Counted from the first letter of the stretch, positions 2,600 through 52,770 are shown. The stretch is 64,000 nucleotides of DNA from Gammaproteobacteria bacterium (GCA_050306135.1 JBNLGQ010000042.1:1233-65232), one strand, 5' to 3'. Notes: generated by a model from the sequence alone, not told the origin. Program-made: numbers and translations.

Positions 2600-2607
2600 A
2601 ATTATCT

Positions 2608-3438: not shown

Positions 3439-3439
3439 C

Positions 3440-4606: not shown

Positions 4607-4634
4607 TACGTTTTAACTGCTATTTATAACCTGG

Positions 4635-4905: not shown

Positions 4906-6507
4906 ATGGCTCTGGCAGATTATTTTCTAATGCTTTTTAAACTTTTCGAAAAGAAAAACGGTAACTATAAAGACGATACTTTATCCGGCTTAACGGTTGC
5001 TCTGGCACTGGTTCCTGAAGCCATCGCTTTTTCCTTTATTGCAGGTGTTGATCCAATCGTTGGCCTTTGGTCGGCGGTTTTCCTTGGATTGATCACTTCT
5101 TCTTTTGGCGGCCGCCCCGGAATGATTTCAGGTGCCACCGGTGCCATAGCGGTTGTTGTTGCCAAGGTCGTAGACATCGGTACGACCACCGGTCTGGAAA
5201 TGGGCGTTGATAATCTCGGCATGCAGTACCTGTTTGCGACTCTACTATTGGCTGGCATCATCCAGGCTGTGGTTGGAGCCTTAAAGCTGGGTAGATTTAT
5301 TCGATTAGTACCTCATCCTGTCATGATGGGGTTTGTTAATGGCCTGGCTATCCTGATCCTGATGGCCCAGTTTGATTCCTTTCGAGATGCGAATGGCAAC
5401 TGGTTAGATAACAATCAGCTGATCGTGATGGGCGGATTAGCCCTGCTCACTATGGCTATCATTCAATTCTTCCCAAAACTGACTCAGGCCGTGCCATCAA
5501 TTCTGGTCGCAATCGTGGGAGTTAGTCTGCTGACATACTTTGATGTGGTCAGTACCAAAACCATTGCCGATGTACTGTATGAAGGTACCGGCAGTGCATC
5601 GCTAGATACAGCACTACCTGCTTTCTCATGGCCCGGTGATATAGTCTGGAATACCAACACCTTACTACTGATAGGTGGAACAGCTGTCACCGTCGCTCTA
5701 GTAGGTCTTATCGAGTCACTGATGACACTTCAGCTTATAGATGACCTGACAGAGACACGCGGTCAGGGCAACCGTGAATGTTTTGCTCAGGGCGGTGCCA
5801 ACTTCATGTCCGGTTTATTCGGAGGCATGGGTGGTTGCGCTATGATCGGTCAGAGTCTGATTAACATCAAATCGGGTGGCCGTGGTCGCTGGTCGGGTTT
5901 TGTTGCTGCAACAACTTTGACCATTCTGATTATGGTGGGTGGCCCTGTTATCAGCCAGATCCCCATCGCTGCACTGGTAGGTGTGATGTTTATGGTCGTA
6001 ATTGGTACCTTTGAATGGGCCAGTTTTATGACCGTGGGCAAGGTACCTTTCGCTGAAGTAATCGTCATTCTGGTCGTTACACTGACAACGGTGATCATGC
6101 ATAACCTGGCACTGGCTGTGTTTGCCGGCGTTATCGTCTCTGCACTGGTCTTCGCCTGGCAGAGTGCTCAGCATGTTCGCCTGAATCCACATAACCTCGA
6201 AGACGGTACTCGAATCTACAATCTACAAGGGGTTCTGTATTTTGGTTCGGTACGTGAATTTGCCGAGCGACTTTCACCTGCTACAGATCCCGATCAGGTC
6301 ATTATTGACTTTAAAGATGCTCGAGTTGCAGATTACTCTAGCATGGAAGCGCTAAATGCCATTACCGAGCGTTATCGTAAGGCTGGTAAAAGACTGCGCT
6401 TGCGTCATCTAAGCCCGGAATGTCAGCATATGATAACCACTGCCGGTAGCCTGATAGAGGTGGAAATGGCTGAAGACGATCCGCATTATCATGTTGCACG
6501 GATATAA
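4906..6507 (+). CDS. SulP family inorganic anion (sulfate) permease with C-terminal STAS domain
   Basis: Multiple TM segments followed by a C-terminal STAS-like region (LQGVLYFGSVREFAERL...IIDFKDARVADYSSMEAL). Confidence 0.8.
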   Translation: MALADYFLMLFKLFEKKNGNYKDDTLSGLTVALALVPEAIAFSFIAGVDPIVGLWSAVFLGLITSSFGGRPGMISGATGAIAVVVAKVVDIGTTTGLEMGVDNLGMQYLFATLLLAGIIQAVVGALKLGRFIRLVPHPVMMGFVNGLAILILMAQFDSFRDANGNWLDNNQLIVMGGLALLTMAIIQFFPKLTQAVPSILVAIVGVSLLTYFDVVSTKTIADVLYEGTGSASLDTALPAFSWPGDIVWNTNTLLLIGGTAVTVALVGLIESLMTLQLIDDLTETRGQGNRECFAQGGANFMSGLFGGMGGCAMIGQSLINIKSGGRGRWSGFVAATTLTILIMVGGPVISQIPIAALVGVMFMVVIGTFEWASFMTVGKVPFAEVIVILVVTLTTVIMHNLALAVFAGVIVSALVFAWQSAQHVRLNPHNLEDGTRIYNLQGVLYFGSVREFAERLSPATDPDQVIIDFKDARVADYSSMEALNAITERYRKAGKRLRLRHLSPECQHMITTAGSLIEVEMAEDDPHYHVARI

Positions 6508-6542
6508 TCTGGTGAATCCCGTCAGCTAAAATTTGATGATAG

Positions 6543-8432
6543 TCAGGCTTTTGAATCATCCAGCACGACTGCATTGCGCCCTGCTTTCTTAGCCTGGTAC
6601 ATCGCTTGATCCGCCCAGGTGATCAGATTGTCTGTAGTAACCTCCCTGTCGAGAAAAAGAACCACTCCGATACTCACTTCGCTCTGGTGTTTTACCTTTT
6701 TCTCCTTAACTGTGTCCTGGGTAGGTATAAGTGTATAGGGCTCAGCCAAAGTGGATCGGATTTTTTCTGCCACATTGCCTGCTTGTAATGCAGATCTGGC
6801 CTTATCCTCATCCAGCTCATTAAGAACAACCACAAATTCATCACCACCATAGCGACCAACCGTATCTACCTGGCGTACACAGCCTTTTAATCTTTTTGCT
6901 ACCTCAACTAATAACAGGTCTCCAACGCTGTGACCATGCAAGTCATTAAGAGGCTTGAAATTATCCAGATCAATAAAGAGCACTGCAGAGTAACTACCAC
7001 TACGTGAACTGGCCTGTATCGCCTGACCCAGTCGATCTATCAACAGTCGACGATTAGGGAGTTGCGTTAAACTGTCAAAAAAGGCGAGATTGTGTATTTG
7101 CTCTTCAACCAGCTTGCGTTGAGTAATATCAACAAACGTAACCACTGCGCCCAGAATAACACCATCATTGATGATCGGCTTTGACCAGTATTCCACTGGT
7201 ATTGCACTTCCATCTTTTTTCCAGAACACTTCATCCGTTACATGATTATCTTCAATTTTATGAAATGCAAAAAAGGATTTACACTCAGATTCTGGATAGT
7301 CACTGCCATCTGGATATGAATGATGAATGAGATTATGAGCATTCTTGCCAATAAGTTCATCGCTCTGATCGTAGCCAAGTATTTCCAGAAATGCGCGGTT
7401 TACAAATTTTAAATTACCATTCTTATCGATGCCGTAGGCACCTTCAGCCATAGAATTAAGTAGTGAGTACATTTGTTGATGGGACTCATGCAGGGTTGTA
7501 ACATCCTGCGCGATACTCACTCCACCTATGATCTTTCCTGCTGTACTTCGCGCAGGTACACAAGTCATAGTGATCCATATAATGGCTTCATCGAATGAGG
7601 TAAAATAATTGCCGTCGTAATAGCCCTGCTCTCCTTGTAGCGCCCTGGTTAAAGCTGGCATAAAAGACTGATCATTGAGCAACCTCAGATCCATCCCGAT
7701 AAGACGCTCAGGAGTGCTGCCTAAGGTCTCTGCGAAACAATCATTGCAGTAGGTGACGATGAGATTAGTATCGTAATACATAATGCCTACGGGTGAATAA
7801 TCCAGCAACAACTGGTAGCGCTTTCTCGCTGTATCCTCACGCTCGGATGCCTCAAGACGCAGAATTATATTATCTCGAATGTTTCTATTCATATAACGCA
7901 AGATCACGAGCATAAAACCAAGATACAACAAGACAGCCATGCCCATAGACGTATACAAACTGTTGCCGGCTGAAAACAGGCGAATAAGAATAGGCGTAGA
8001 AACTAAAACAGAAAAACCTATTGAACTGGCAAGATCGGCAGCATATGAAATCACTCCTCCAGCCGATAGTCCTGCCAGCATGAAAACTATAAACATCTGA
8101 TGATGTGGATCGTTGGGCGGGAACATCACAATCCCTGACATTCCCCACACGAAACCAATAGCCAGCACACCAGCACGAAACTTCTGCATGCGTGCATCAG
8201 ACGAGGTATTTTCATCCAGCGGGAAACGTTTATAGGTATAAACGAGAATAAAGCGAGAGATAGCGACCAGTACGATCAGAGAAAGCCAGATCATAATCAC
8301 ATTTGAAGCGATCAAACCTTGCTGTATATAAGCTAGAAATATCGCAAGCAATGTACTGGTGATAATTGAGGTATAGCTGGAGGCTAGCATCTGCCGCAGC
8401 AGCTCAGCCTTTATCGCTCTCTTTTTATACAT
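6543..8432 (-). CDS. Sensor diguanylate cyclase: N-terminal multi-TM domain, two PAS/PAC domains, C-terminal GGDEF domain
   Basis: Intact GGDEF (RYGGDEFVV) with an RxxD I-site at the canonical spacing (RQVDTVGRYGGDEF). PAS-like segments lie in the middle and about 6 TM helices at the N-terminus. Confidence 0.85.
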   Translation of the reverse strand: MYKKRAIKAELLRQMLASSYTSIITSTLLAIFLAYIQQGLIASNVIMIWLSLIVLVAISRFILVYTYKRFPLDENTSSDARMQKFRAGVLAIGFVWGMSGIVMFPPNDPHHQMFIVFMLAGLSAGGVISYAADLASSIGFSVLVSTPILIRLFSAGNSLYTSMGMAVLLYLGFMLVILRYMNRNIRDNIILRLEASEREDTARKRYQLLLDYSPVGIMYYDTNLIVTYCNDCFAETLGSTPERLIGMDLRLLNDQSFMPALTRALQGEQGYYDGNYFTSFDEAIIWITMTCVPARSTAGKIIGGVSIAQDVTTLHESHQQMYSLLNSMAEGAYGIDKNGNLKFVNRAFLEILGYDQSDELIGKNAHNLIHHSYPDGSDYPESECKSFFAFHKIEDNHVTDEVFWKKDGSAIPVEYWSKPIINDGVILGAVVTFVDITQRKLVEEQIHNLAFFDSLTQLPNRRLLIDRLGQAIQASSRSGSYSAVLFIDLDNFKPLNDLHGHSVGDLLLVEVAKRLKGCVRQVDTVGRYGGDEFVVVLNELDEDKARSALQAGNVAEKIRSTLAEPYTLIPTQDTVKEKKVKHQSEVSIGVVLFLDREVTTDNLITWADQAMYQAKKAGRNAVVLDDSKA

Positions 8433-8895
8433 ATAAGATCTGGGAATATTAGATTAGTTACAACTAGCTATTCGTTAACCCCTCCTCCTGTTATGTAGAT
8501 AAAGCATCCTGACCGTAAAATCTTATTCGAAACAGGTCCTTACACTTCCTGCAATGAAGAAATTCAGCAGGCTACTGCTCCGAAAATAATAGTCTGCTCT
8601 ACTTAGCATAGTTTAGTCATGGATTATTTCCTTATATAGAAGGTGATTTTTTGTTCAGGTAACACGATGTGGTTCCGGTCAGTGGGGTAATTTGTGATGG
8701 GTGTAGAAGGGTTTATCAGATAGTTGAGAATGAGTTTTTCGTTAATATTCAATCTGTTTCACACAGTCCACATAACAGTTTGCAGACTATCATCACTACT
8801 GGTAAAGAGCTGGGGCCCTGTAAACTTTTAATGTAAATCCTGCGATAAAGGGACAGTGTGTTTATCAGGGCTTTAGATTTTATGAGTGATAAATT

Positions 8896-9243
8896 CTATT
8901 TATCAACAATACGTTTTTTATAAGCCGTCGGATTCATGTCCCTGACGTCAATACTAAGACTTGGCAGGTCGGTGAGGTAATCAGCCAAAGCACTCCTAAG
9001 CTGAATTGCCAGGTTTTCCTTTTGTTCATCAGTCCTCCCCTTAAGCAGGCTTACGGTAATATGAATAAATAAATCAGGTTGCCCGGCGAGCAAATAAAGA
9101 TCATAGGGTATGGCTCTAACCTTAATATCGGCGGGATCCATAATCCCACTGTTACCCCCAACCTCAAGTATCGTATTCATCACTCTTGTAAGATCAATGC
9201 TTTGCTCAAGTGGTCTGGCGTATTCGATTTGAAAATGTGGCAT
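8896..9243 (-). CDS. Tautomerase-superfamily protein, 5-carboxymethyl-2-hydroxymuconate isomerase-like
   Basis: 115-aa protein resembling CHMI/HpaF-type isomerases (MPHFQIEY...). It is the last gene of the minus-strand operon, 22 nt downstream of the GS-like gene. Confidence 0.55.
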   Translation of the reverse strand: MPHFQIEYARPLEQSIDLTRVMNTILEVGGNSGIMDPADIKVRAIPYDLYLLAGQPDLFIHITVSLLKGRTDEQKENLAIQLRSALADYLTDLPSLSIDVRDMNPTAYKKRIVDK

Positions 9244-9265
9244 AGTCGATTATCTCTATCTGGAA

Positions 9266-10726
9266 TTAAAATATGGATAGGTATTCATTTTCTTCCCAGT
9301 CAGTAACCGTGGCCATGAACCGATCCCATTCAGCCTGCTTAATGGTTGAATAATAATCGACGAAAGCATCTCCCAGGGTTTCTCGATAGAATTTACTTTC
9401 ACGAAACGCCTGCAGGGCTTCTAGCAAGGTTTTCGGTAGTCTCTCTGCATCACTGTCGTAGGGGTTGTTCACTGCAGGCGGTGACTCTAAACCACGTTTG
9501 ATACCATCCATGCCACTGACAACCTGTGAAAGCATATACAGATAAGGATTGGCTGCTGGCTCACCTACTCTGTTTTCTATACGACTGGCAGGGTCTCCAG
9601 GACCTGATAGAACACGTAGCATCGCACCCCGGTTATCTCGTCCCCACTGTATACGATCGGGCGCCAGAGAGAATTCACGATAGCGTTTGTAACCATTGAT
9701 AGTGGGCGTTGAGAACAGGCAGCTTTCACGCGCATGCTGCAGAAGTCCGGCAATCCATTGATGCCCTAAATCTGAAATAACACCCTCTTCAGGTGTAAAC
9801 AGGTTATCACCTGTTTTGCTATCGATGACTGATTGATGAAGATGCCATCCACTTGCCATTGCCTCCTTAAAACGAGGTCGACACATAAAGGTGGCATGTA
9901 AACCATTGCGACGGCATACCTGTTTAACCATGGAGCGGAATAAAATCATCGTATCCGCCTGCTGCATAGCTTGCTGAGGCTCAAAAGTCACTTCACATTG
10001 GCTTGGGCCAAACTCGACTTCAAAAGAGCGCACAGGTAATCCTAGAGCACGAGCATTTTTGCGAATCAGTGCAAATACGTCTTCCTGCTGATCATAGATA
10101 TCTTCAGTCAGATATTGATAGCCCTGAGAGATTAGACTTACTTTAGGTGGAGCTCCAGGCTGACCGGCGTCTTCAAGATTGAGTGGAACATCCAGTGCTT
10201 TGAAGACATAAAATTCGACTTCAAGCCCGGTAATAAACTGTCGACTGGAACGCTCCAGTTCTGCCAGTGCTTTAGCCAGTAACCCTCGTGTGGAGAACGC
10301 ATTGACTGTGCCATCGGTATTATAGAGATCCGATAGCATCCAGCCGTTACCGGCTGCCCAGGGCAGGATTTTAAAACTTAGAGGGTCTGGTACCATAACA
10401 AGATCTGATGCACCGGTCATAGCGCCATCACCGAATCCTGCATCTGTCTTCCAGATTGGAAAAACGGTACGATGTGACGTGTCTTTTAACAATAATGTGG
10501 ATGTCATAGTGACACCACTCCTGAAACATGACACAAGCGCATCGGCAGCGATTGTCTTGCCACGCAATATCCCGTGCTGATCAACGAAAGAAATCCGCAC
10601 TACTTCAATATTGTTTTCTTCAATTGACTTGATAACTTCACTGGCTGCCGACTTTTGTTGTGGCGTCCATAATCCATATCTGTCGATAAAAGGACGCGAA
10701 TCGAATGATTGAGTAGTATCGTTCAT
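9266..10726 (-). CDS. Glutamine synthetase family protein (probable gamma-glutamyl-amine/amide synthetase)
   Basis: GS catalytic-domain motifs are present: EVEFYVF, GWHLHQS and ENRVGEPAANPYLYM. The likely start is the ATG at 10726 (MNDTTQSF...), 16 nt after the Rieske gene stop. The track ORF start at 10834 would overlap the upstream gene by 92 nt. Confidence 0.75.
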   Translation of the reverse strand: MNDTTQSFDSRPFIDRYGLWTPQQKSAASEVIKSIEENNIEVVRISFVDQHGILRGKTIAADALVSCFRSGVTMTSTLLLKDTSHRTVFPIWKTDAGFGDGAMTGASDLVMVPDPLSFKILPWAAGNGWMLSDLYNTDGTVNAFSTRGLLAKALAELERSSRQFITGLEVEFYVFKALDVPLNLEDAGQPGAPPKVSLISQGYQYLTEDIYDQQEDVFALIRKNARALGLPVRSFEVEFGPSQCEVTFEPQQAMQQADTMILFRSMVKQVCRRNGLHATFMCRPRFKEAMASGWHLHQSVIDSKTGDNLFTPEEGVISDLGHQWIAGLLQHARESCLFSTPTINGYKRYREFSLAPDRIQWGRDNRGAMLRVLSGPGDPASRIENRVGEPAANPYLYMLSQVVSGMDGIKRGLESPPAVNNPYDSDAERLPKTLLEALQAFRESKFYRETLGDAFVDYYSTIKQAEWDRFMATVTDWEENEYLSIF

Positions 10727-10742
10727 AGATATATTTTCGCTG

Positions 10743-12065
10743 TTATTCGCCTTTAGCCCAGCTTGAATCGGCGCGTCGTTTTTTATCATAGTCATGCCAG
10801 GAGTTACTCCAGTTATCGACCGGAGCAATGGCATCTACAGCGATGGGACCATGAATACCTCTTGCCTTAGTTTCGTCGACTATCAGGGGAAGATCCTTCA
10901 CTCCGTCACCATTTTCCAACTGTCTAATCGCGTTACGCAGAATCTTACGGTATTTCTTTATAGCTACATCCGTGCTGCCCAGGTGCTCATCCGTTCTATC
11001 CTGAATCTGCCCCATAGATTCACAGGCCCATTGATCATGCACGTTGATATCCATTCCCATACCGGTATAGGTTTTGTTTTTCTGCTCTTCAGGATCAAAC
11101 AGATAGTTATTCGCCTTGTTTCGGATAGGAGCATAGTCGGGTACGGTTTGCGATTCCAGGCGTTGTGCTCGCATCTTTTCCTTATCTACCGGATCAGTGA
11201 AGCTGGTAAACATCGAATACCAGTAACAGTTATAATCGTCGATGGGAACATGCCACTGGGTTATCGTCATTTCTCGCGACATGGGGATATGAATAGCACA
11301 GGGGAAAACCTGATTGGTAATACGTACATGCATTTGCCCATTGTTTAGATTACGTAGCGTGGTCAGGCGAAGGCCCCAGTCGGTCTCTTCTACTCGAATC
11401 TCGGGGCGGTCAAATTCGCGTAGTACTTTGGTCAGCGGAATACCCGTATCTGCGGCTGAATCACGAAACTGTTTGCCATAGCCCTCTTCAGGCGCTTCAT
11501 CTTCAGCAAAGCGATGCAGGAAGGATGCATGCACAGGATCGATGCCGACTTCCAGAGCCTGTAGCCAGTTACATTCCCAGAGACCTTTGTAAGAGAACAC
11601 GTGAGAGTCAGGCGCAACAAAACAATCAAAATCTGGAAATGCTGGCGCTTCGCCCTCTCCCATGAATGCCCAGATGATGCCATTCTTTTCGATCGCGGGA
11701 TAGGCTTTGATTTTCACATTTTCATGCATACGGGAACCTTCAGGCTCACCCGGTTGCCCTGTACATTGTCCTGTAGCATCAAAATGCCAGCCATGAAAAG
11801 GGCAACGCAGGCCATTGTTCTCAACACGGCCTATACACAGGTCGACTCCACGATGGGCACAGCTACGTTGAACCAGAGCTGGTTTTCCATCCTCGGTACG
11901 GAACAGTGCCAGGTTTTCACCTAACAAACGAACAGGTACTACAGATCTACCGAATTCCAGTTCTTCACTTAACGCTGCTGGCATCCAGTATTGACGCATT
12001 AAAGTGCCTGCAGGAGTACCTGGACCGATACGGGTTATTTCATCATTCTTTTGCTGGCTCATCAT
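10743..12065 (-). CDS. Rieske non-heme iron oxygenase, catalytic (alpha-type) subunit, single-subunit GbcA/CntA/Stc2-like architecture
   Basis: Rieske motif CAHRG...CPFHGWHF and mononuclear iron motif DPVHASFLH. No beta-subunit or reductase gene is adjacent. Confidence 0.8.
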   Translation of the reverse strand: MMSQQKNDEITRIGPGTPAGTLMRQYWMPAALSEELEFGRSVVPVRLLGENLALFRTEDGKPALVQRSCAHRGVDLCIGRVENNGLRCPFHGWHFDATGQCTGQPGEPEGSRMHENVKIKAYPAIEKNGIIWAFMGEGEAPAFPDFDCFVAPDSHVFSYKGLWECNWLQALEVGIDPVHASFLHRFAEDEAPEEGYGKQFRDSAADTGIPLTKVLREFDRPEIRVEETDWGLRLTTLRNLNNGQMHVRITNQVFPCAIHIPMSREMTITQWHVPIDDYNCYWYSMFTSFTDPVDKEKMRAQRLESQTVPDYAPIRNKANNYLFDPEEQKNKTYTGMGMDINVHDQWACESMGQIQDRTDEHLGSTDVAIKKYRKILRNAIRQLENGDGVKDLPLIVDETKARGIHGPIAVDAIAPVDNWSNSWHDYDKKRRADSSWAKGE

Positions 12066-12082
12066 AGCGTGAATTCTCTTTA

Positions 12083-12544
12083 TTATTTAACCGTTGTATC
12101 AACCTTCTTATCAACTGATAACATGGTTCTAATGTCTTCTGGTACCGGCTGCGCCACCATTTTTTCTGGATTATCCGGGTCAGAGTAACCCCAAACTCGA
12201 ACTTCGTTGCCTAGCGCTACTGGATCAGGGTCATCACCCTGCCTGAATTCATGGCTAACCACAAACGAGGTATTACCAAATTTTTCTACTTTTGAGCTTA
12301 GCTCTGTGATATCGCCAAAATATAACGGACGCTTAAATGCCATATTACTGGCAACCAGAGGGAATCCCCTGAAGAGTTTATCTTCACGAATCTTTTGTGG
12401 TAGATCAAAACCGGCAGCCTGAAGCATTGAATGCGATCCACCATCCATCCAGATGTAATAATGGGGGTTAAAGATAATACCTGCAGCATCGCAGTGTGCC
12501 CATTCGACTCTAATTCTTTGAATAGCTGTGAACATTGATAACAA
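12083..12544 (-). CDS. Hotdog-fold acyl-CoA thioesterase (4HBT/YbgC-like)
   Basis: 153-aa protein with the typical 4HBT N-terminal region (HCDAAGIIFNPHYYIWMD). Confidence 0.6.
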   Translation of the reverse strand: MLSMFTAIQRIRVEWAHCDAAGIIFNPHYYIWMDGGSHSMLQAAGFDLPQKIREDKLFRGFPLVASNMAFKRPLYFGDITELSSKVEKFGNTSFVVSHEFRQGDDPDPVALGNEVRVWGYSDPDNPEKMVAQPVPEDIRTMLSVDKKVDTTVK

Positions 12545-12672
12545 TCCTACAATGAGTTAACGCAGTCATGGCGCGTGATAGCGTGGCAATCTTTTACAGC
12601 ATTTCCAATTGTTGATAGATTGCCGCGCTACCGCTCGCAATGACAGAAATGGTTGATGTCAGCTAAGACACC

Positions 12673-13383
12673 TTAAATACCCAGATAACGTGATTTTAAT
12701 TCAGCATCATGAGTCAGCAATTCTGAATTACCTTGCCAGACCACCTTACCTTTTTCAACGATATAGTGTTGGTCGGCGATATCGGCAAATTCATCTATAT
12801 TTTTGTCGATGAGTAATATAGTCAAGCCGGTTTCTTTTAACTGTTCGAGGCGCCGCCAAATTTCCTGACGAATCAATGGTGCTAATCCTTCGGTAGCTTC
12901 ATCTAGAATCAACAGCCGTGGATTAAGCATAAGCGCTCGTCCTATTGCCAGCATTTGCTGTTCTCCACCCGATAACTGGTTGCCCATATTATCCAGTCGC
13001 TCACTCAAACGAGGGAAAAACTCGAGGACTTTTTCCAGAGTCCAGGGATTACTGCTACCACTGTAATTGGCTGCAGTAGCTATCAGATTTTCAAGCACGG
13101 ATAAATTCGGAAAAATCTGTCGGCCTTCAGGTACCAGACCTATTCCGAGTTGTGCGACCTCATAAGCGGGCCTACCCGATATCACTTTGCCCCCAAACTT
13201 TATTTCACCACTACGAATGGACATAATACCCTGTATAGAAGAAACCGTAGTCGTTTTCCCCATGCCGTTACGACCTATCAGGGTAGTCACCTCACCTTCC
13301 TTACACTGCAGAGTCATTCCAAATAGGGCCTGAATCGTGCCATAAAAAGATTCTACATTGTTCAACTCAAGCATGGCTGTCAC
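12673..13383 (-). CDS. Branched-chain-amino-acid-type ABC transporter ATP-binding protein (LivF-like)
   Basis: Walker A GRNGMGKTT, signature LSGGEQQMLAIGRAL, Walker B LILDE. Confidence 0.85.
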   Translation of the reverse strand: MTAMLELNNVESFYGTIQALFGMTLQCKEGEVTTLIGRNGMGKTTTVSSIQGIMSIRSGEIKFGGKVISGRPAYEVAQLGIGLVPEGRQIFPNLSVLENLIATAANYSGSSNPWTLEKVLEFFPRLSERLDNMGNQLSGGEQQMLAIGRALMLNPRLLILDEATEGLAPLIRQEIWRRLEQLKETGLTILLIDKNIDEFADIADQHYIVEKGKVVWQGNSELLTHDAELKSRYLGI

Positions 13384-14119
13384 CTAAGTAGGCCTGTTGC
13401 ACTTCTATATTGTTACGAATGTTTTCTACCGTATCAGTTGCAATCACATGTCCATTCACCAGCACAGAGAGTTTATCAGCCATACGGAATACGGCATCCA
13501 TATCATGCTCTACCAGCAGGATAGTGATATCACCCTTTAGACGATTTAATATTTCCACCATCACTTCGCCCTCTTCCTTACCCATACCAGCCATAGGTTC
13601 GTCAAGTAGCATCATGCGTGGCTTCATCGCCAGCGCCATTGCGAGTTCGAGCTGGCGTTGTTCACCATGGGATACATTAGCCGCAATACTTTGCGCTCTA
13701 TCTTCCAGTCCCAGTTGCGCCAGACATTGCATAGCAGCATCTTTCATCTTTGTATCATTTTTGACGGGTTTCCAGAAGCGGAATGAATGACCGCTGGTAC
13801 CCTGGATAGCTAGCATGACATTTTCCAGTAATGTCATTGGTAGTACTACGCTGGTAATTTGAAAAGATCGAGCCAGACCCTCATGAGCTCGACGTGCCAT
13901 ACTGTAATCGACAATACTATGGCCACCAAAGCGAATATCACCTGAGTCGGGTTTAATCTGCCCGGAAAGCTGAGAAATCAAGGTTGTTTTACCTGCTCCG
14001 TTGGGACCAATAATGGCATGTATTTTTCCTTCTTCGACCATTAAGTTCACATCATCGGTAGCACGTATACCGCCAAAACTTTTGTTAAGCCCGGTAACCT
14101 CAAGCAGATGATTAGCCAT
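13367..14119 (-). CDS. Branched-chain-amino-acid-type ABC transporter ATP-binding protein (LivG-like)
   Basis: Walker A GPNGAGKTT, signature SHGEQRQLELAMAL, Walker B LLDEP. Overlaps the downstream ATPase gene by 17 nt. Confidence 0.85.
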   Translation of the reverse strand: MANHLLEVTGLNKSFGGIRATDDVNLMVEEGKIHAIIGPNGAGKTTLISQLSGQIKPDSGDIRFGGHSIVDYSMARRAHEGLARSFQITSVVLPMTLLENVMLAIQGTSGHSFRFWKPVKNDTKMKDAAMQCLAQLGLEDRAQSIAANVSHGEQRQLELAMALAMKPRMMLLDEPMAGMGKEEGEVMVEILNRLKGDITILLVEHDMDAVFRMADKLSVLVNGHVIATDTVENIRNNIEVQQAYLGDSHA

Positions 14120-15081
14120 TACTTAACTTCTCCTTTTCTATCCAGCAGTGTTAGCCAGCCATGGATACCACCCTTGCCAAACATGACCAGTGCAACCAGT
14201 AACACACCAAATATCAAATGCCAGTAAATAGTGATGGCAGACAGGCCTTCTTCTAACAGTACAAAAATCATGGTGCCAATTAATGGACCCAAAAAAGAAC
14301 TCACGCCACCAATGATAGCCATAAACATCAGTTCACCAGAACGTGCCCAGCTAATCATGTCAGGACTGATAAAGCCTGAAAAATTACCCATTAACACACC
14401 AGCCAGACTACACATCATTGCTGAAATTACATAACAGCTCAGGCGATAACGATAGGTGTTAAAACCCAGTGCCTGCATACGTTCTTCATTATGTTTTGAA
14501 CCTACAATAACGCGACCAAAACGAGCCATCACCAGGCGCCAGGTAAAAAACAGAGACAGTAGCAGGACAGCAAATATCCAGTAATAAAGCTGAGTATTAC
14601 TCTCCATGCTAATCAGTTCTGGGAATTCACTACGTGAGTAAATTACGAGACCATCATCCGCGCCATATTCTTCCAGACTTACAAAGGTGAAATACACCAT
14701 TTGGCTGAAAGCCATGGTGATCATAATAAAATATACGCCTTTGGTGCGTAGGCTGATTGCTCCGGTTATTAAAGCAAAGGTCCCACTTACCGAGAGTGCG
14801 AGTGCCAGGTGTAACCAGCCATTATAATAATCATAATAAGAAGGTATACCGACGCAGTAAGCGCCAATACCAATATAAGCAGCATGCCCCAGACTCACCA
14901 TGCCACCAAAACCCAGAATCAAATTCAAACTAATAACGGCAATACTGAGGATTAACGCTCGACTCAATACATCAAGATAAAAAGGTTTATCAATCCATTC
15001 AAATATAAATGGTGCCAGTGCTAGTAATATCAGCAATATAGCGTAAATACGACCGGAAGTACTTTTTGGGAAAAACACCAT
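14119..15081 (-). CDS. ABC transporter permease (LivM-like)
   Basis: Polytopic membrane protein. Start and stop overlap the neighbouring genes (ATGA junctions). Confidence 0.8.
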   Translation of the reverse strand: MVFFPKSTSGRIYAILLILLALAPFIFEWIDKPFYLDVLSRALILSIAVISLNLILGFGGMVSLGHAAYIGIGAYCVGIPSYYDYYNGWLHLALALSVSGTFALITGAISLRTKGVYFIMITMAFSQMVYFTFVSLEEYGADDGLVIYSRSEFPELISMESNTQLYYWIFAVLLLSLFFTWRLVMARFGRVIVGSKHNEERMQALGFNTYRYRLSCYVISAMMCSLAGVLMGNFSGFISPDMISWARSGELMFMAIIGGVSSFLGPLIGTMIFVLLEEGLSAITIYWHLIFGVLLVALVMFGKGGIHGWLTLLDRKGEVK

Positions 15082-16004
15082 TACTTCTTCCCTGCCGGGG
15101 GAAACAGCCCCTGTGGTCGAAAGGCCAGCACCGCAGCCATTAGTATATAAACCAGCATTGCTGACAATGCAGGTGCGGCAGTTTCAGCGTAGTTATTAGG
15201 CATAGCCAGTTTAAGTAACACATCAAGGTAGGAACGGCTCAAGGTATCAATCAAACCCAGAATCATAGCCGCATAAAATGCCCCTTTAATCGACCCTATG
15301 CCTCCGATAATAACCACCACGAATGCGATAATAATGATATCGTTACCCATGCCTATACTGGCTTCGGTAATTGGAGCAATAAGCATGCCTGCCAGTCCAG
15401 CCATGGCTGCACCCAGTGCAAATACGATGAGGAATAATCGATTAATATTCACGCCCAGAGCTTCAACCATTACTCGATTTGAAGCCCCCGCTCTTATCAG
15501 CATACCCAGACGTGTTTTTGAAACCAGAAAGTAAAGTGCTGCCGCTACCACCAATCCTGCAAATATAATCAACAGTCTGTAGGTAGGTAGCTCGACTCCA
15601 GCTAATGTGATTTGACCATTTAGAGATGCAGGTAGACGTATTGCCATACCAGATGCACCCCAGATTAAATGTACCAGAGTATCGAATATTAATATCAGAC
15701 CAAAAGTAACCAGCACATGGTCAAGATGATCCGCGCGGTATAACTTTCTGACAATTGCCCATTCGACGATGGCACCAATAATAAAAACTCCAATCAGTCC
15801 TAGCACTATACCAAGCAGAAATGAGCCACTATAGGCAACTACACTACCGCAGAAATAGGCACCAATCATATAGAAGGAGCCATGAGACAGGTTGATAAAG
15901 TCCATGATGCCAAAGATCAGGGTCAATCCAGAGGCCAGTAAAAACAATAACAACCCGAGCTGCAGCCCATTCATCAATTGAGAGATGAGAAGATTCCAGT
16001 CCAT
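15081..16004 (-). CDS. ABC transporter permease (LivH-like)
   Basis: Polytopic membrane protein of the HAAT family pattern, in operon. Confidence 0.8.
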   Translation of the reverse strand: MDWNLLISQLMNGLQLGLLLFLLASGLTLIFGIMDFINLSHGSFYMIGAYFCGSVVAYSGSFLLGIVLGLIGVFIIGAIVEWAIVRKLYRADHLDHVLVTFGLILIFDTLVHLIWGASGMAIRLPASLNGQITLAGVELPTYRLLIIFAGLVVAAALYFLVSKTRLGMLIRAGASNRVMVEALGVNINRLFLIVFALGAAMAGLAGMLIAPITEASIGMGNDIIIIAFVVVIIGGIGSIKGAFYAAMILGLIDTLSRSYLDVLLKLAMPNNYAETAAPALSAMLVYILMAAVLAFRPQGLFPPAGKK

Positions 16005-16081
16005 AATGCTTACCAGGATTTTTTTGGAGAAGTTAACCGGTTCCGAACAAGCTTCAGAACCGGGAGAAGAGAGCTAACTTT

Positions 16082-17272
16082 TTATTTCATCTTACATTGA
16101 GAGGCGTAAGGATCCTGATGGTTTGTGTATACTGTACTTACGATTTTTGTGGTCCAGCGACCTTCTGCGTCAGCAACAACTTCACGAAGGTAGAAATTCT
16201 GGATAGGCATATGGTTATTGCCATAGGTATATCTACCTCGAACAGAATCAAAATCAGCTGCTTTTAATGCCTTACGAATAGCATCTTTATCTTTTAAATT
16301 ACCACCAACCGCTTCAACAGCAGACTTAATCAGCATGATTGAATCATAAGATTGTGCACCATAGAACGATGGGTACTTACCATACTTTTTCAGGTAATCA
16401 GATACAAATCGTTTATTGGTTGGGTTATCCATATCGGGGGACCATTCCTGAGTATTCTTGGTACCCAGCACACCTTTTAAACCTGCCTGCTGTAACTTAG
16501 GTAATGCGATTGAATCAACAGTAAAAACGGTATATAGCGGCATCTCATCCTGCAGACCGGCCTGTTGATATTGTTTAATAAAAGCACCACCGGCTTTACC
16601 AGGATAGAATATGAAGATAGCTTCAGCACCAGATGCCTTGGCTTTTGCCAGTTCAGCAGAAAAATCGAGCTGGGCATCTGCACCCCACTTGGTCAGATCC
16701 TTACCCACTACCTTCCCTTTGAAGGTATTTTCTACGCCAGCCGCCATGTCTTTACCCGCAGCATAGTTAGGGACCATGATATAGATCGATTTAACGCCTT
16801 GTTGATTCAGATACTCACCCATTGCCATCGGCGTCTGGTCATTCTGCCAGGAGGTAGAGAAGAAGTTTTTATTACAACGCTTGCCTGCGATTTGGGAAGG
16901 CCCTGCATTTGTACTGATAAGGAATTTGTCTGCTCTTACTACTGAATTCATGGATGCCAGTAATACATGAGACCAGAGATAACCTGCAACAAAATCAACA
17001 TCATCCTGTTTAACCAGCTTATCTGTCTTTTGCTTGCCCACATCAGGTTTAAAGCCATCGTCTTCCATGATTAATTCAACATCCAGGTTGCCCATTTTGT
17101 TACCAATATGGTCGAGCGCAATTTCTACTGAATTTTTTACATCTTCACCAATGACACCTGCTGGCGTGGTGAGTGTGGTAACAAAACCAATTTTAACGCT
17201 ATCGGCCTGAGTAACACCGGTCGTAGCAAGAGCTGCTGCGACAACCGCAGTCTGAATTATTTTAGAAAACAT
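16082..17272 (-). CDS. Periplasmic substrate-binding protein, Liv/amide/urea-type (family 4 SBP)
   Basis: Signal peptide (MFSKIIQTAVVAAALATTGVTQA) on a roughly 370-aa periplasmic binding fold. It is the first gene of the minus-strand operon. Confidence 0.8.
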   Translation of the reverse strand: MFSKIIQTAVVAAALATTGVTQADSVKIGFVTTLTTPAGVIGEDVKNSVEIALDHIGNKMGNLDVELIMEDDGFKPDVGKQKTDKLVKQDDVDFVAGYLWSHVLLASMNSVVRADKFLISTNAGPSQIAGKRCNKNFFSTSWQNDQTPMAMGEYLNQQGVKSIYIMVPNYAAGKDMAAGVENTFKGKVVGKDLTKWGADAQLDFSAELAKAKASGAEAIFIFYPGKAGGAFIKQYQQAGLQDEMPLYTVFTVDSIALPKLQQAGLKGVLGTKNTQEWSPDMDNPTNKRFVSDYLKKYGKYPSFYGAQSYDSIMLIKSAVEAVGGNLKDKDAIRKALKAADFDSVRGRYTYGNNHMPIQNFYLREVVADAEGRWTTKIVSTVYTNHQDPYASQCKMK

Positions 17273-17440
17273 CTCACATCCTCTTTTACAGTTTATTTAT
17301 TAGTTATTGATAAGGGCTATCAATAAGTATTACTTTTTGTTTCTGAGTATCAATACTGCCACCAACCGATTATCTCTACAAACATTGTGTGAGCTTCATG
17401 CTGCCAGAGTCACTACAGGGTTGAGTACCAAAACCGTTAA

Positions 17441-17520
17441 AATGCATTATTATGCATGCGTCTGGATACTAATCTCTGCAATATGCACTGTCAAGAACTA
17501 TACTGCATGCAAATAGGTCA
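17441..17520. promoter_or_regulatory. TGCA-rich operator-like region containing a TGCA-N6-TGCA element (ATGCATTATTATGCAT at 17442-17457)
   Basis: Read directly: about 7 TGCA tetramers in 80 bp, including TGCA-ttatta-TGCA. This motif type is the one recognised by BzdR/BoxR regulators. Confidence 0.4.
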
Positions 17521-17760
17521 ACTGGATTACTGTGAAAATTATTGATCGAATTCTTTGTAACCTATATTAGAGTAAACAGGATATAACTATTAAGCTCATG
17601 AAAAAGAACTGATCAAAGCATTTTTTGCTATCAACATAATATCTCCGAAGAGATTATATTGATAATTACCATGTATTATATTTCTCATTCATATTGTGAA
17701 TGATAGTAATTAATAATGCATGAAAATTTGAAAACATAATGTCCCAAATTCCATCTTACC

Positions 17761-17816
17761 TGCATTATAATTTCGCTCATTGCACCTTCATTGCACCTTC
17801 ATTGCATTAGCTTGCA
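17761..17816. promoter_or_regulatory. Direct repeat array (cattgcacctt x2.7), TTGCA every 10-11 bp, upstream of the MFS gene
   Basis: tcattgcacct tcattgcacct tcattgcatt agcttgcact read directly. Helical-turn phasing suggests a regulator binding array in the 5' leader of the MFS gene. Confidence 0.4.
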
Positions 17817-17917
17817 CTATATTGCTACACTCACTGCCGATATGTGAAGCTGATCTATTTGAAAGAAATCACTATAAACACCCTAAATCTCTCCGCTTTT
17901 CTGGGAATAGCAGTTAT

Positions 17918-19099
17918 ATGAATAAAACCCACTGGACCAACGTCGGGATCGCATTTTTTGCTGGTTGTATAACCGCCTTCCAGATTGGTAAAGCCTTTGC
18001 TTCTCTAGCATTAATTATTGACGAACTCTCCCTTAGCCTGGTTCAGGCGGGCTCTCTGCTATCTTTATTCACCCTGATCGCCGCCCTGGCAGGCTCAGGA
18101 TTTGGACTACTGGCTGATCGCATTGGCCACTTACATATGGCACTTGCTGGACTGGTCATCTCTGCCAGCGGTGCTTTTCTGGGTTCAATGGCAGATGGGC
18201 TGTCATTTCTGATGTTTTCGCGTCTGGTCGAAGGATTCGGTTTTATCATGTCTATTGTTGCCCTGCCCTCGTTAATGAGCCGTTCTGCTAGCGATGAAGA
18301 TAGACCTCTGGTGATGGGCATCTGGGCAGCTTTTATGCCAACAGGAATCGGTCTATCGATGATCATTACACCGCTACTACTGGAGTTACATGGATGGCGT
18401 GGGTTATGGAATGATATAGGATTAATTATGCTTGCCTGGGCAGTGATTATATATTTTGCTTTTCGTAACCATAGAAAAAAACATGCAGTACCCACGAACT
18501 CACTCAACTTCATCAACAGTATTCTTAGGATAGGTCCATTGCTAGTGGTCACCGGGTTTATCTGTTACTCGACTCTGTACCAGTCACTTACTGCTTTTCT
18601 ACCGACTATGCTGGTTCAGAACTATGCGGTAGCTATCGATAAAGCCGCGCATTTTGGTGCCATCGTAGTTGTTGGCAACATCATTGGTAATATTTCCGCA
18701 GGCTGGTTGATAGGTCGAGGTATGGCACCCTGGAAGGTCGTTACTATGGCTTTTAGCGCCATGTTAGTCTGTGCCTCGATGGTATTTGCCAGCATGACAG
18801 ACCCAGTGACAAAGGTCATTGCTGGGTTTCTGTTTTCAGCATTTGGGGGCCTCTTTCCAGGTACGGCTTTTGTGCTCGCATCACGTTTCTCACCCAGTCC
18901 ATCGCATATGGCGCTCATGACAGGCCTGATTTTACAGGGTGCGGGCATTGGGCAAACTTTGGGCCCTATGATGGTTAGCTCGGTAGTTGAATATAATGAT
19001 AACTGGAATTATGCCATCCTGGTCGTCGTCTTAATGGCTACTATAGGTCTTAGCTGTGCCTGGCAGTTGAGCAAAACTAAAGAGGCTTCAAATAGCTGA
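17918..19099 (+). CDS. MFS transporter (12-TM)
   Basis: Polytopic protein with MFS loop motifs. The start was reassigned to the ATG at 17918 (MNKTHWTNVGIAFFAG). The track ORF begins 138 nt upstream inside the repeat array. Confidence 0.75.
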   Translation: MNKTHWTNVGIAFFAGCITAFQIGKAFASLALIIDELSLSLVQAGSLLSLFTLIAALAGSGFGLLADRIGHLHMALAGLVISASGAFLGSMADGLSFLMFSRLVEGFGFIMSIVALPSLMSRSASDEDRPLVMGIWAAFMPTGIGLSMIITPLLLELHGWRGLWNDIGLIMLAWAVIIYFAFRNHRKKHAVPTNSLNFINSILRIGPLLVVTGFICYSTLYQSLTAFLPTMLVQNYAVAIDKAAHFGAIVVVGNIIGNISAGWLIGRGMAPWKVVTMAFSAMLVCASMVFASMTDPVTKVIAGFLFSAFGGLFPGTAFVLASRFSPSPSHMALMTGLILQGAGIGQTLGPMMVSSVVEYNDNWNYAILVVVLMATIGLSCAWQLSKTKEASNS

Positions 19100-19122
19100 C
19101 GAAAGGGTCACATAACACTTAA

Positions 19123-20601
19123 ATGCAAACCTATAAATATTCAGCAAGCATCATACTCACGCGTGGGCCGGATGATAACCCGGAAGTTTATCTTGCTCGT
19201 CGTGCCCCCAAGATTAAAATCTTTGGTGATTTCTGGGTATTCCCGGGCGGTAATGTCAGCGAGATTGATTGTCACAGAGAGGATGATACCTTAGAGCAGG
19301 TTTTTGCACGCTGTGCAATTCGTGAAGCTTTTGAAGAGTGTCAAATTTTGTCAGCTACATTAGGCAAATCTTTTAGTTCTGATGAAAAACAAAAGCTTAA
19401 AAACACGTTGACTCAATCACCTGATAGCTGGAAATCTTTCATCTCTGATTTTGATCAAAACTTCAAACAGTTAATACCGGTATTTCGCATCAGCACTCCA
19501 CCTTTCACACCACTACGGTATGACACACAGTTTATGCATGTACGTGCAGTAGATGATGAAGTGCCTTCGATTGATAATTATGAGCTAGTCGAAGACTGCT
19601 TTATTAAGCCTGCAGCAGCAATCAATGCCTGGCTTAAAGGTAAAATGAAAATTGCACCACCTGTATTACAGATGTTAAAGCTACTGGATGAAAAAAAGTT
19701 ATCCGGTTTCTATGAACTAACGGCTTCAGCAAGCGAAGCATTACAGCAAGGTGATTTGCATCAGATATATTTTTCACCAGGGATATTCATAGCTCCTCTA
19801 TTAACCGATACCATTCCACCTGCTACAACCACCAATACCTTAATTGTTGGCACAGAGAACCTTTATATAGTTGACCCTGCCACGCCAGATGAAAGAGAAC
19901 AGCAACGTTTATTCAAACAGCTGGATCAACTGCTTGGCAATGGCTGCAAACTTAAAGCAATTCTCCTCACACATCACCATCCTGATCATGTGGCTGCGGT
20001 TAATGCACTAAGCCAGCGATATCAATTACCCGTACGAGCTCATGAATTATGCTACCCCAGAATTGCAAAAGGGTTTATTAAAGGGGACGCACTAAAAGAT
20101 GGTGATATTCTTGAACTAGGGACTGCTCCAGATGGGACAAAAGGCTGGCAACTAACTGTATTGCACACACCCGGGCATGCGGTAGATCATTTATGCTTTA
20201 TCGAAAACAGATATCAATCAGCTATTGTTGGCGATATGTTATCAACGGTGTCAACCATTCTGATCAACCCACCTGAAGGTCACATGCAAACCTATCTGAA
20301 TAGTTTACATCGACTACTGGCATGCAATATCAAGGCACTATATCCAGCGCATGGTCCCGCGAAAAGTGATGGTGCCGGTTTGATTAAGTATTACATCAAA
20401 CACCGAGCAGATCGTGAACAGGAAACACTGTCTGCATTGACAAAAACGCCTCAAACCATCGAACAGATATTGCCCAGCGTTTACAATGATGTACCTGAGT
20501 CGGTATACCCAATTGCGAAGCGTTCTCTGCTAGCGGAGCTTATCAAGCTGGAAGAAGAAAACAGGTGCTGCCAGAGTATACAGGGTTGGAAGTTAACGTG
20601 A
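19123..20601 (+). CDS. Two-domain hydrolase: N-terminal NUDIX-like domain fused to C-terminal MBL-fold metallo-hydrolase
   Basis: A NUDIX-box-like segment (GGNVSEIDCHREDDTLEQVFARCAIREAFEECQI) lies in the first 100 aa. The MBL motif THHHPDHVAAV (HxHxDH) plus downstream His/Asp ligands lie in the C-terminal half. The gene starts 23 nt after the MFS stop. Confidence 0.65.
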   Translation: MQTYKYSASIILTRGPDDNPEVYLARRAPKIKIFGDFWVFPGGNVSEIDCHREDDTLEQVFARCAIREAFEECQILSATLGKSFSSDEKQKLKNTLTQSPDSWKSFISDFDQNFKQLIPVFRISTPPFTPLRYDTQFMHVRAVDDEVPSIDNYELVEDCFIKPAAAINAWLKGKMKIAPPVLQMLKLLDEKKLSGFYELTASASEALQQGDLHQIYFSPGIFIAPLLTDTIPPATTTNTLIVGTENLYIVDPATPDEREQQRLFKQLDQLLGNGCKLKAILLTHHHPDHVAAVNALSQRYQLPVRAHELCYPRIAKGFIKGDALKDGDILELGTAPDGTKGWQLTVLHTPGHAVDHLCFIENRYQSAIVGDMLSTVSTILINPPEGHMQTYLNSLHRLLACNIKALYPAHGPAKSDGAGLIKYYIKHRADREQETLSALTKTPQTIEQILPSVYNDVPESVYPIAKRSLLAELIKLEEENRCCQSIQGWKLT

Positions 20602-52768: not shown

Positions 52769-52770
52769 TG

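Follow-up and report, generated by a model that had tools for sequence, protein, structure and literature searches.

A nine-gene operon that probably serves the catabolism of an anionic aromatic amine, built around a glutamine synthetase-like ligase and an alpha-only Rieske oxygenase

Introduction

In a 64-kb stretch of DNA from a gammaproteobacterium (hereafter the window, meaning the whole stretch that was analysed), the nine genes between positions 8896 and 17272 probably encode a catabolic and nitrogen-salvage route for an anionic aromatic amine, of the kind known from the sad operon and the aniline dioxygenases, with 4-aminobenzoate or an analogue as the leading candidate substrate. The core of the operon is a pair of genes, one for a Rieske oxygenase composed of an alpha subunit only and the other for a glutamine synthetase (GS)-like ligase. 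As read here, the locus would be a further sad-type, alpha-only, GS-dependent arylamine dioxygenase, equipped with a lineage-specific importer, thioesterase and tautomerase and devoid of linked redox partners. It reveals neither a new kind of chemistry nor a new osmolyte pathway, and the gene pair at its centre is little studied though widespread. An earlier note on this DNA had declared the combination of genes unfamiliar; its core in fact recurs in at least 600 genome stretches, is carried on a plasmid of the sulfanilate degrader N. resinovorum SA1, and matches the gene content of the published sad operon (PMC5632844).

The operon

Nine open reading frames (ORFs) in a single orientation on the minus strand fill positions 8896-17272, and all of them are intact by ORF map, Pfam and NCBIfam. 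The nine-gene, same-strand operon described in the earlier note, along with its named domains, is thereby borne out. An ATP-binding cassette (ABC) importer occupies the upstream part. It comprises a periplasmic binding protein of 396 residues (16082..17272; Pfam Peripla_BP_6, 256 bits), two permeases matched by Pfam BPD_transp_2, one of the LivH/UrtB family (15081..16004, 307 residues) and one of the LivM/UrtC family (14119..15081, 320 residues), and two ATPases, the first LivG/UrtD-like (13367..14119, 250 residues; Pfam ABC_tran and BCA_ABC_TP_C) and the second LivF/UrtE-like (12673..13383, about 233-236 residues, and 233 in the same-species gene call; Pfam ABC_tran). Downstream lie the enzyme genes, which encode an accessory hotdog-fold protein, predicted to be an aryl-CoA thioesterase (12083..12535, 150 residues; Pfam 4HBT and 4HBT_2), the alpha-only Rieske oxygenase of the phthalate family (10743..12065, 440 residues; Pfam Rieske and LigXa_C), the GS-like protein, a putative gamma-glutamyl-arylamide synthetase (9266..10726, 486 residues; Pfam Gln-synt_C, 277 bits), and a second accessory protein, a member of the tautomerase superfamily and of the 5-carboxymethyl-2-hydroxymuconate isomerase (CHMI) family (8896..9243, 115 residues; Pfam CHMI, 51 bits). 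The exact Rieske protein, together with the same neighbour genes, is present on nine contigs drawn from an NCBI assembly and several metagenomes.

The genes are tightly packed. Intergenic gaps range from -1 to 77 nucleotides (nt), the LivM/UrtC-family permease gene overlaps its neighbour by 1 nt on each side, and the hotdog gene, which starts at the ATG at 12535, ends 17 nt ahead of the Rieske gene. The start of the GS-like gene is most likely the ATG at 10726, 16 nt past the Rieske stop codon, because the closest homologue has the same length of 486 residues; an overlapping ORF of 522 residues is disfavoured. The sole exception to the close spacing is a 137-nt spacer ahead of the hotdog gene, between the transporter and enzyme genes. 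An inverted repeat in this spacer folds into a hairpin (12565..12644, minus strand) with arms of 28 nt that are 82% complementary and a fold energy of -36.4 kcal/mol (z -3.9). This hairpin is unique in the window and lacks a following U tract. An Rfam search of the operon, spacer hairpin included, returned no match, and a terminator scan found no strong terminator between the transporter and enzyme modules. The element could act in intercistronic processing or stabilisation, or it could be an operator. About 200 nt upstream of the binding-protein gene, at 17466..17494 on the minus strand, a sigma-70-like promoter candidate (TTGACA-17-TAGTAT) agrees at 10 of 12 positions; it is a weak candidate, given that the number of sites in the promoter and terminator scan of the region did not exceed the shuffled expectation.

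The glutamine synthetase-like ligase

Among proteins of solved structure, the closest relative of the ligase is NpaA1 (8wwu), the 1-naphthylamine gamma-glutamylating enzyme, with 440 bits (E 1e-130), as against about 180 bits for true glutamine synthetases and about 125 bits for GmaS. Identity is 45-48% to the DcaQ type and NpaA1, 28% to E. coli GlnA and 26% to PuuA. Matches in the plasmid collection fall into tiers: those at 49-56% are GS-family genes that adjoin alpha-only Rieske genes, followed by the DcaQ/TdnQ type of chloroaniline plasmids at 46-47%, NpaA1 at 43% and IpuC at 31%. A neighbour-joining tree, with annotated records of NpaA1, the pTB30 DcaQ type, IpuC, and E. coli PuuA and GlnA as references, concurs. 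It places the window protein in a clade of partners of alpha-only Rieske enzymes, sister to DcaQ and NpaA1, with the PuuA/IpuC branch next and GlnA outermost. The phylogenetic placement that the earlier note had proposed as a check thus sets the protein beside DcaQ/TdnQ and NpaA1 and far from GlnA, PuuA and IpuC; the clustering with GlnA that the same note had feared for its reading is not seen.

Individual residues tell the same story. In alignment, all metal, ATP and glutamate ligands of GlnA are conserved in the ligase, while the GlnA ammonium site is changed at three positions, from D50 to T, from S53 to G and from E327 to L. The leucine at the E327 position is common to the ligase, DcaQ and NpaA1. 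The glutamates of the NpaA1 amine pocket, E232 and E234, are retained as well (residue roles from PMC11335346). The motifs earlier described as intact are therefore intact for gamma-glutamyl-phosphate chemistry but not at the ammonium site, where D50 and E327 are replaced. Congruent with this, the score against TIGR00653, the GlnA equivalog, is 230 bits where the cut-off is 429. On these comparisons the GS-like protein is to be read as an arylamine-type gamma-glutamyl ligase, to the exclusion of a nitrogen-assimilation enzyme, and the amine-activating role that the earlier note had given it is upheld by the NpaA1 score, the tree and the residues alike. In NpaA1 an extra N-terminal loop lines the amine tunnel. 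The N-terminal substrate-entry loop of the window ligase is basic and polar (TSTLLLKDTSHRTVFP), whereas that of the aniline and naphthylamine enzymes is hydrophobic. A basic and polar loop is found throughout the ligase clade, and a K and an R of it are also retained in SA1.

The Rieske oxygenase

The partner of the ligase is full length and bears both the Rieske motif (C69xH71...C88xxH91) and the iron motif (D176xxH179xxxxH184). No beta-subunit ORF adjoins its gene, and a search of the window found no homologues of a beta subunit or of a reductase for it. The earlier description of a lone alpha-type enzyme with both motifs holds, and the enzyme is neither a pseudogene product nor, judging from the genes nearby, part of a multi-component dioxygenase. 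Among solved structures it comes closest to isophthalate dioxygenase 9ina (235 bits), 7fhr (212 bits) and phthalate dioxygenase 7fjl (188 bits), as against 28 bits for CntA and 21 bits for Stc2, and an NCBIfam search of the protein gave no GbcA match. N-dealkylation of the GbcA/CntA/Stc2 type, which the earlier note had entertained, loses its footing here, as the protein falls outside that group and into the phthalate family. Weak matches include the O- and N-demethylases DdmC and NdmA/B.

Within the phthalate family, the protein belongs to a tight clade of its own, with 57-81% identity inside the clade and 37% to the nearest phthalate-type enzyme. Identity falls to 16-18% for the alpha subunits of aniline and naphthylamine dioxygenases (NpaA3, DcaA1 type) and for CntA, with 18% for E. 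coli YeaW. Its catalytic domain is assigned by Pfam to LigXa_C rather than to Ring_hydroxyl_A. In the plasmid collection, 17 records match at 52-60% and the next one at 40% or less, a clean gap from which a distinct subfamily is deduced. Identity is 58.6% to the copy on plasmid pSA3 of N. resinovorum SA1 and 57.6% to that of Polaromonas JS666. In alignment, residue R248 falls on R244, which anchors the carboxylate in phthalate dioxygenase, and R248 is invariant across 20 sequences of the family; R244 in turn corresponds to R234 of isophthalate dioxygenase (PMC12445078). The protein would thus be a phthalate-family, alpha-only enzyme, for which a role as gamma-glutamyl-arylamide dioxygenase is proposed.

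A conserved gene pair

The genome scan took one genome per species, and neighbourhoods were examined at 85 loci. At least 600 genome stretches, spread over soil and marine Proteobacteria, matched the family of the Rieske/GS pair, and a relative is encoded in 599 of the first 600. At 79 of the 82 loci whose sequence reaches far enough, the Rieske gene is followed immediately, on the same strand, by the GS-like gene. The distance matrices of the two proteins correlate with a Mantel r of 0.80, a value reached by none of 999 permutations and one to which shared species history contributes. That the GS-like ligase and the lone alpha-type Rieske oxygenase work together is a prediction with good support. 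The same pair resides on plasmids and chromids of Burkholderia, Caballeronia and Paraburkholderia, at about 57% and 54% identity for the Rieske and GS-like proteins, respectively.

Around this pair, an IclR regulator is found upstream at 44 of the 85 loci, a putidaredoxin-type ferredoxin at 8 and an FAD-type reductase at about 8. A CHMI-like gene is near the pair in 6 loci and a glutamine-amidotransferase-like gene in 2. With ferredoxin and reductase genes at only about 8 of 85 loci, a window that lacks redox partners is normal for the family. Several kinds of transporter accompany the pair. An ABC system orthologous to that of the window, its binding protein 51-71% identical, stands beside it in about 21 other loci and a second Liv-type ABC lineage in 8; TRAP DctPQM genes are near it in 4 to 7 loci, and TctC in a few.

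Genes for aromatic degradation recur in the same neighbourhoods. In the closest relative (L003, 81%) the pair comes directly after paaK-paaZ, at the end of a paaFGHIJKZ operon (1771-12840). In a locus from Granulosicoccaceae (L010) it lies between ABC genes and genes for a ligase, a hydrolase, boxC, boxB, boxA and a thioesterase, all on one strand (5101-20170). An aerobic benzoyl-CoA (box) cluster is within 10 kb of the pair in about 18 loci, mostly of Bradyrhizobium and relatives. The operon studied here shares this aromatic setting, as the same window holds a complete box cluster and a second ring-hydroxylating dioxygenase.

The importer and the likely substrate

The label 'Liv-type', given to the importer in the earlier note, is apt at the level of family but goes no further. 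All five proteins score well below the NCBIfam cut-offs for the UrtA-E and LivJHMGF equivalogs; the binding protein, for one, reaches 84 bits for Urt (cut-off 492) and 60 bits for Liv (cut-off 477). Its best solved relatives are 4evq/4evr, 4ey3, 4evs and 4f06, at 91-140 bits, compared to 74 bits for urea binders and 28 bits for LivJ. These relatives, neither urea nor Leu/Ile/Val binders, are presumably binders of benzoate derivatives, that is, of aromatic acids, from Rhodopseudomonas. Orthologues of the LivH/UrtB-family permease, at 56-68% identity, stand beside the pair in other loci, and orthologous ABC systems adjoin benzoate-CoA-ligase-type genes in L010 and L032. In other lineages, TRAP DctPQM genes share an operon with the pair (for example in Oceanobacter, L006) or TctC genes are found nearby.

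An anionic aromatic amine is the substrate to which these features point, because TRAP and TctC transporters co-occur with the pair in other lineages, because the best solved relatives of the binding protein are presumably aromatic-acid binders, and because orthologous ABC systems adjoin benzoate-CoA-ligase-type genes. The two enzymes lead in the same direction, the ligase through its basic and polar loop, and the oxygenase through the carboxylate-anchoring arginine that it keeps. Sulfanilate being an isostere of 4-aminobenzoate, the latter becomes the leading candidate. Our leading guess is therefore 4-aminobenzoate or a close analogue; other aminobenzoates or aminophenylacetates could also fit.

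The accessory genes

The best solved relatives of the hotdog protein are 4-hydroxybenzoyl-CoA thioesterases (5wh9, 72 bits; 1bvq, 47 bits), and its D16 aligns with D17 of 1bvq, which we take to be the catalytic aspartate. With a 4HBT fold and an aspartate near its N-terminus, the protein has the features of the 4-hydroxybenzoyl-CoA thioesterase class, a specificity that is predicted. Homologues at 66-86% identity keep other company, namely BoxC/BoxB-like genes, a gentisate-type cluster or genes of beta-oxidation. All are unlinked to the Rieske/GS pair, so that the hotdog protein was rejected as a regular partner of the latter.

The CHMI-like protein passes the Pfam CHMI model (51 bits, cut-off 26.5) and falls far short of the NCBIfam CHMI equivalog (27 bits, cut-off 215). 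Against E. coli CHMI (1otg) its E value is 0.004, with Pro1 retained. A true 5-carboxymethyl-2-hydroxymuconate isomerase (HpcD/HpaF) was rejected, the equivalog score being too low and no hpa genes lying nearby. A homologue directly follows the GS-like gene in N. resinovorum SA1 (37%), in Oceanobacter (58%) and in L027, and further homologues are near the pair in L050, L051 and L063.

A proposed pathway and its alternatives

These parts can be assembled into a tentative route. The Liv-family ABC importer, whose binding protein resembles aromatic-acid binders, would take up the arylamine acid. Using ATP and L-glutamate, the ligase would then convert it into a gamma-glutamyl anilide, as its 45-48% identity to the aniline-type enzymes and its conserved catalytic residues suggest; this chemistry has been shown for the relatives AtdA1 and NpaA1. 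The Rieske oxygenase, fed electrons by a ferredoxin and a reductase encoded elsewhere, would by analogy dihydroxylate the ring at the nitrogen-bearing carbon and the adjacent carbon. The resulting carbinolamide would collapse into glutamine and a catechol, the latter being protocatechuate if the substrate is 4-aminobenzoate. More speculatively, the CHMI-like tautomerase may speed keto-enol rearomatisation of the dienone left after glutamine loss, or act at a later step. The hotdog protein, equally speculatively, may hydrolyse aminobenzoyl-CoA misformed by the benzoate-CoA ligase of the box pathway, a clearing role made plausible by the box cluster, with such a ligase, in the window. Of the options in the earlier note, an aromatic amine with ring hydroxylation is the one that fits the ligase similarity, the tree and the residues.

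Other explanations deserve to be weighed against this route. Next to nothing favours the view that the GS-like gene encodes an ordinary nitrogen-assimilation glutamine synthetase, placed by chance beside an unrelated oxygenase. Such an enzyme would indeed have a Gln-synt_C domain with intact metal, ATP and glutamate residues, but the ligase reaches 230 of the 429 bits set for TIGR00653, has lost D50 and E327, is 28% identical to E. coli GlnA, and is encoded in strict adjacency to a Rieske gene in 79 of 82 loci. It is also very unlikely that the operon imports an osmolyte or quaternary amine (betaine, carnitine or methylated amines) for gamma-glutamylation and N-demethylation of the GbcA/CntA/Stc2 type. 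The transporter is in the same broad family as the Urt and Liv systems, and betaine and choline genes lie only 4-9 kb away, a neighbourhood that the earlier note had read as a clue. Those genes, however, are on the opposite strand, separated from the operon by two unrelated genes (SulP and PAS-GGDEF) and with no link to it. The enzymes argue against this idea as well: the oxygenase is 18% identical to YeaW/CntA, scores 28 bits for CntA and 21 for Stc2 against 235 for isophthalate dioxygenase, and has no GbcA match, while the ligase, with 440 bits for NpaA1, scores about 125 bits for GmaS and shares 26% identity with PuuA. Quaternary amines, moreover, offer no N-H for glutamylation.

The operon might consist of two side-by-side modules, a benzoate-type importer and a thioesterase that serve the box pathway and an independent, sad-type Rieske/GS/CHMI set whose substrate enters by another way. 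We regard this as unlikely, though it accounts for the 137-nt spacer and stable hairpin that part the transporter genes from the hotdog gene, for hotdog homologues that are otherwise unlinked to the pair and found next to box genes, and for orthologous ABC systems that adjoin benzoate-CoA-ligase-type genes, the transporters linked to the pair having been swapped many times. Set against it are the roughly 21 loci, from several bacterial families and with several gene orders, where the pair is found with the orthologous ABC system, the co-directional Rieske-GS-ABC operons of L057, L059 and L072, the mere 17 nt from the hotdog stop to the Rieske gene, and the failure to find a strong terminator between the modules. 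Also unlikely is that the pair is wired into aerobic aryl-CoA pathways by a route not yet described, in which glutamylation and Rieske oxygenation would make a substrate of benzoate or phenylacetate type from an amino-substituted or aralkyl amine precursor. This idea arises because the pair sits in a box operon in L010 and in a paa operon in L003 and is joined to an aryl-CoA thioesterase gene in the window. Nitrogen could then be passed on directly as glutamine, and the CHMI-like protein could be a dedicated catalyst of rearomatisation or elimination. In a milder form, the pair may represent a widespread soil and marine pathway for recycling folate-derived 4-aminobenzoate. Another proposal, and an improbable one, has the pair deaminate a cationic aralkylamine such as benzylamine or 2-phenylethylamine: after glutamylation, hydroxylation of the nitrogen-adjacent carbon would yield an aldehyde and glutamine, and the aldehyde would be oxidised to benzoate or phenylacetate to feed the box or paa pathway, close to the 'oxygenolytic N-dealkylation' of the earlier note. 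The position of the pair inside the box operon of L010 and after paaK-paaZ in L003 would be accommodated, as would the box cluster within 10 kb in about 18 loci and in the window itself, and phthalate-family Rieske enzymes do include the O-/N-demethylases DdmC and NdmA/B, which are weak matches here. Yet the TRAP and TctC transporters and the aromatic-acid type of the binding proteins speak for an anionic substrate, the sister enzymes of the ligase clade have amino groups bound to the ring as their targets, the window holds no linked aldehyde dehydrogenase gene, and the trio of genes is carried on the plasmid of a sulfanilate degrader, the sad product being a catechol (PMC5632844).

The preferred route, catabolism of an anionic aromatic amine with salvage of its nitrogen, has weaknesses of its own. 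Its function is read from sequence and gene context. Kinship with SadA and SadB (WP_009515254.1 and WP_009515256.1) is deduced from gene content and from SA1 as a stand-in, and the pSA3 cluster may be the published sulfanilate dioxygenase. The 64-kb window contains no ferredoxin or reductase for the pair (by tblastn with JS666 and SA1 queries), no homologue of the JS666 glutamine amidotransferase, and no IclR regulator. The placement of the pair in a box operon in L010 and in a paa operon in L003 goes unexplained by a simple protocatechuate route. The roles given to the thioesterase and the tautomerase are conjecture, because neither gene has a counterpart in most related loci. The aromatic-acid ligands ascribed to 4evq and its relatives are presumptive. 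Finally, what the conserved arginine and the basic loop hold could be the alpha-carboxylate of the glutamyl moiety instead of a ring substituent.

If the preferred assignment to an anionic aromatic amine is right, it has consequences for annotation. The JGI/IMG labels of the genes are 'phthalate 4,5-dioxygenase', 'branched-chain amino acid transport system substrate-binding protein' and '5-carboxymethyl-2-hydroxymuconate isomerase', and annotated plasmid records call the GS-like partner 'glutamine synthetase family protein'. The three JGI/IMG names are likely misleading as to function, and naming the pair a sad-type, glutamate-dependent arylamine deaminating dioxygenase would correct the database labels. 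The assignment also narrows the substrates worth testing in a marine bacterium to a few.

Other genes in the window

Several further loci flank the operon. On the opposite strand, positions 11-4606 hold genes for an ABC system of the OpuA type for glycine betaine and betA, for choline dehydrogenase (834 bits), which the window edge truncates. On the plus strand at 19123-20601 is the gene for a 492-residue protein with metallo-beta-lactamase and BLACT_WH domains and a weak N-terminal NUDIX match; it adjoins an MFS transporter gene that is divergent from the operon. A very large ORF of 1759 residues spans 27714-32993 on the minus strand. The second ring-hydroxylating dioxygenase locus (40495-44254) includes a divergent LysR regulator and encodes an AndAc-like alpha subunit (40973-42235; 367 bits, cut-off 750), a candidate beta subunit (40495-41013) and a BenC-like Fer2/FNR reductase (42261-43247). 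Apart from the last, which is 30 kb from the operon and might in principle supply other oxygenases, no FNR/Fer2-type reductase was found in the window.

The complete box cluster lies at 48374-57912 on the minus strand, with BoxA, BoxB and BoxC all above their NCBIfam equivalog cut-offs. It also contains genes for a BoxR-like regulator (XRE plus shikimate kinase), a hemerythrin, a benzoate-CoA ligase and an alpha/beta hydrolase. At its end (57448-57912, minus strand) is a gene for a PnbB-family protein, of the 4-hydroxylaminobenzoate lyase family (Pfam, 185 bits; no NCBIfam model matches), and hence a further enzyme family for nitrogen-substituted benzoates in the window of the operon. The hemerythrin-domain gene is situated between boxR and boxA (49383-49961), and another is found, together with a hotdog homologue, in the gentisate-type cluster of L100 (11715-12293), a recurring association of hemerythrin genes with aromatic-acid clusters.

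Comparison with known systems

Among systems with a comparable logic, those for aniline, chloroaniline and 1-naphthylamine have an established mechanism. AtdA1-A5, TdnQTA1A2B/DcaQTA1A2B and NpaA1-A5 all proceed by gamma-glutamylation followed by Rieske dioxygenation: the GS-like enzyme makes a gamma-glutamyl anilide that is the direct substrate of the dioxygenase, which forms the catechol, and NpaA2, an amidotransferase-like hydrolase, is dispensable (PMC11335346). The aniline-type ligases are 45-48% identical to that of the window, form its sister clade, and share with it the replacement of E327 by leucine and the amine-pocket glutamates, while the entry loop is hydrophobic in the former and basic in the latter. 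The oxygenases differ as well. The aniline type is composed of alpha and beta subunits of the benzoate/toluate type, whereas that of the window is alpha-only and 16% identical to the NpaA3 and DcaA1 type. Canonical aniline clusters also encode a glutamine-amidotransferase-like hydrolase and a fused FNR-type reductase, and the window cluster encodes neither.

For the oxygenase itself, the nearest characterised relatives are phthalate dioxygenase (7fjl) and isophthalate dioxygenase (9ina) from Comamonas testosteroni KF1, which are likewise alpha-only, have the same pair of Rieske and LigXa_C domains (E 1e-54 to 1e-68), and share the anchoring arginine, at only about 31-38% identity. These two convert dicarboxylates into cis-dihydrodiols with a PDR-type reductase as partner and need no GS-like partner. 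As for chemistry, the pab genes of Paraburkholderia terrae KU-15 reportedly turn 4-aminobenzoate by way of gamma-glutamyl-4-carboxyanilide into protocatechuate. If so, this is the very chemistry proposed for the window, on the substrate judged likeliest here. The KU-15 genome announcement makes no mention of these genes (PMC9302171).

In gene content, the closest published match is the sad operon of Hydrogenophaga intermedia PBC, which comprises sadA (4-aminobenzenesulfonate 3,4-dioxygenase), sadB (GS-like), sadC (ferredoxin) and sadD (reductase), converts 4-aminobenzenesulfonate by deamination into 4-sulfocatechol, and is a conserved feature of the genus Hydrogenophaga, its natural substrate having been proposed to be an analogue of sulfanilate (PMC5632844). 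Like the sad operon, the window operon has one Rieske gene without a beta subunit, paired with a GS-like gene. It is on this match of gene content that the window family is likened to the sad operon, orthology being presumed. The sad operon includes a dedicated ferredoxin and reductase, of which the window operon has neither; the latter adds a five-gene ABC importer and a hotdog thioesterase. A homologue search with the Polaromonas protein gave no match named Hydrogenophaga among the best 120 listed, all of them at least 79% identical. A plasmid match from Hydrogenophaga BPS33 turned out to be a phthalate-type oxygenase of the ordinary kind, accompanied by a PDR reductase, and was set aside as not relevant.

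Two other relatives show how the pair can be furnished. The Polaromonas JS666 plasmid has genes for a GntR regulator, the Rieske and GS-like proteins, a ferredoxin, a reductase, a five-gene Liv-type ABC system and a type-1 glutamine amidotransferase. In Oceanobacter, an IclR gene is followed by TRAP, ferredoxin, reductase, Rieske, GS-like and CHMI genes.

The gene order of the window recurs on plasmid pSA3 of N. resinovorum SA1, whose Rieske, GS-like and CHMI-like proteins (58.6%, 53.5% and 37% identical) are encoded in the same order; in the trees, the first two fall in the same clades as those of the window. The pSA3 genes are bracketed by insertion sequences (L085, 4681-18501), and near them are genes for a ferredoxin, an FAD reductase, a glutaminase, a maleylacetate reductase and an IclR regulator. 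The glutaminase gene, a neighbour of those for the ferredoxin and reductase, would suit a pathway in which the amine nitrogen comes free as glutamine. The window source, with a GC content of about 44%, is no pollutant degrader, unlike the hosts of the sad and SA1 genes. Copies in Afipia and Xanthobacteraceae, where CHMI, ferredoxin and reductase genes are present too, match the SA1 proteins at 84% and 75% identity. This closeness suggests recruitment of the xenobiotic route for sulfanilate from a common natural one, probably for compounds like 4-aminobenzoate.

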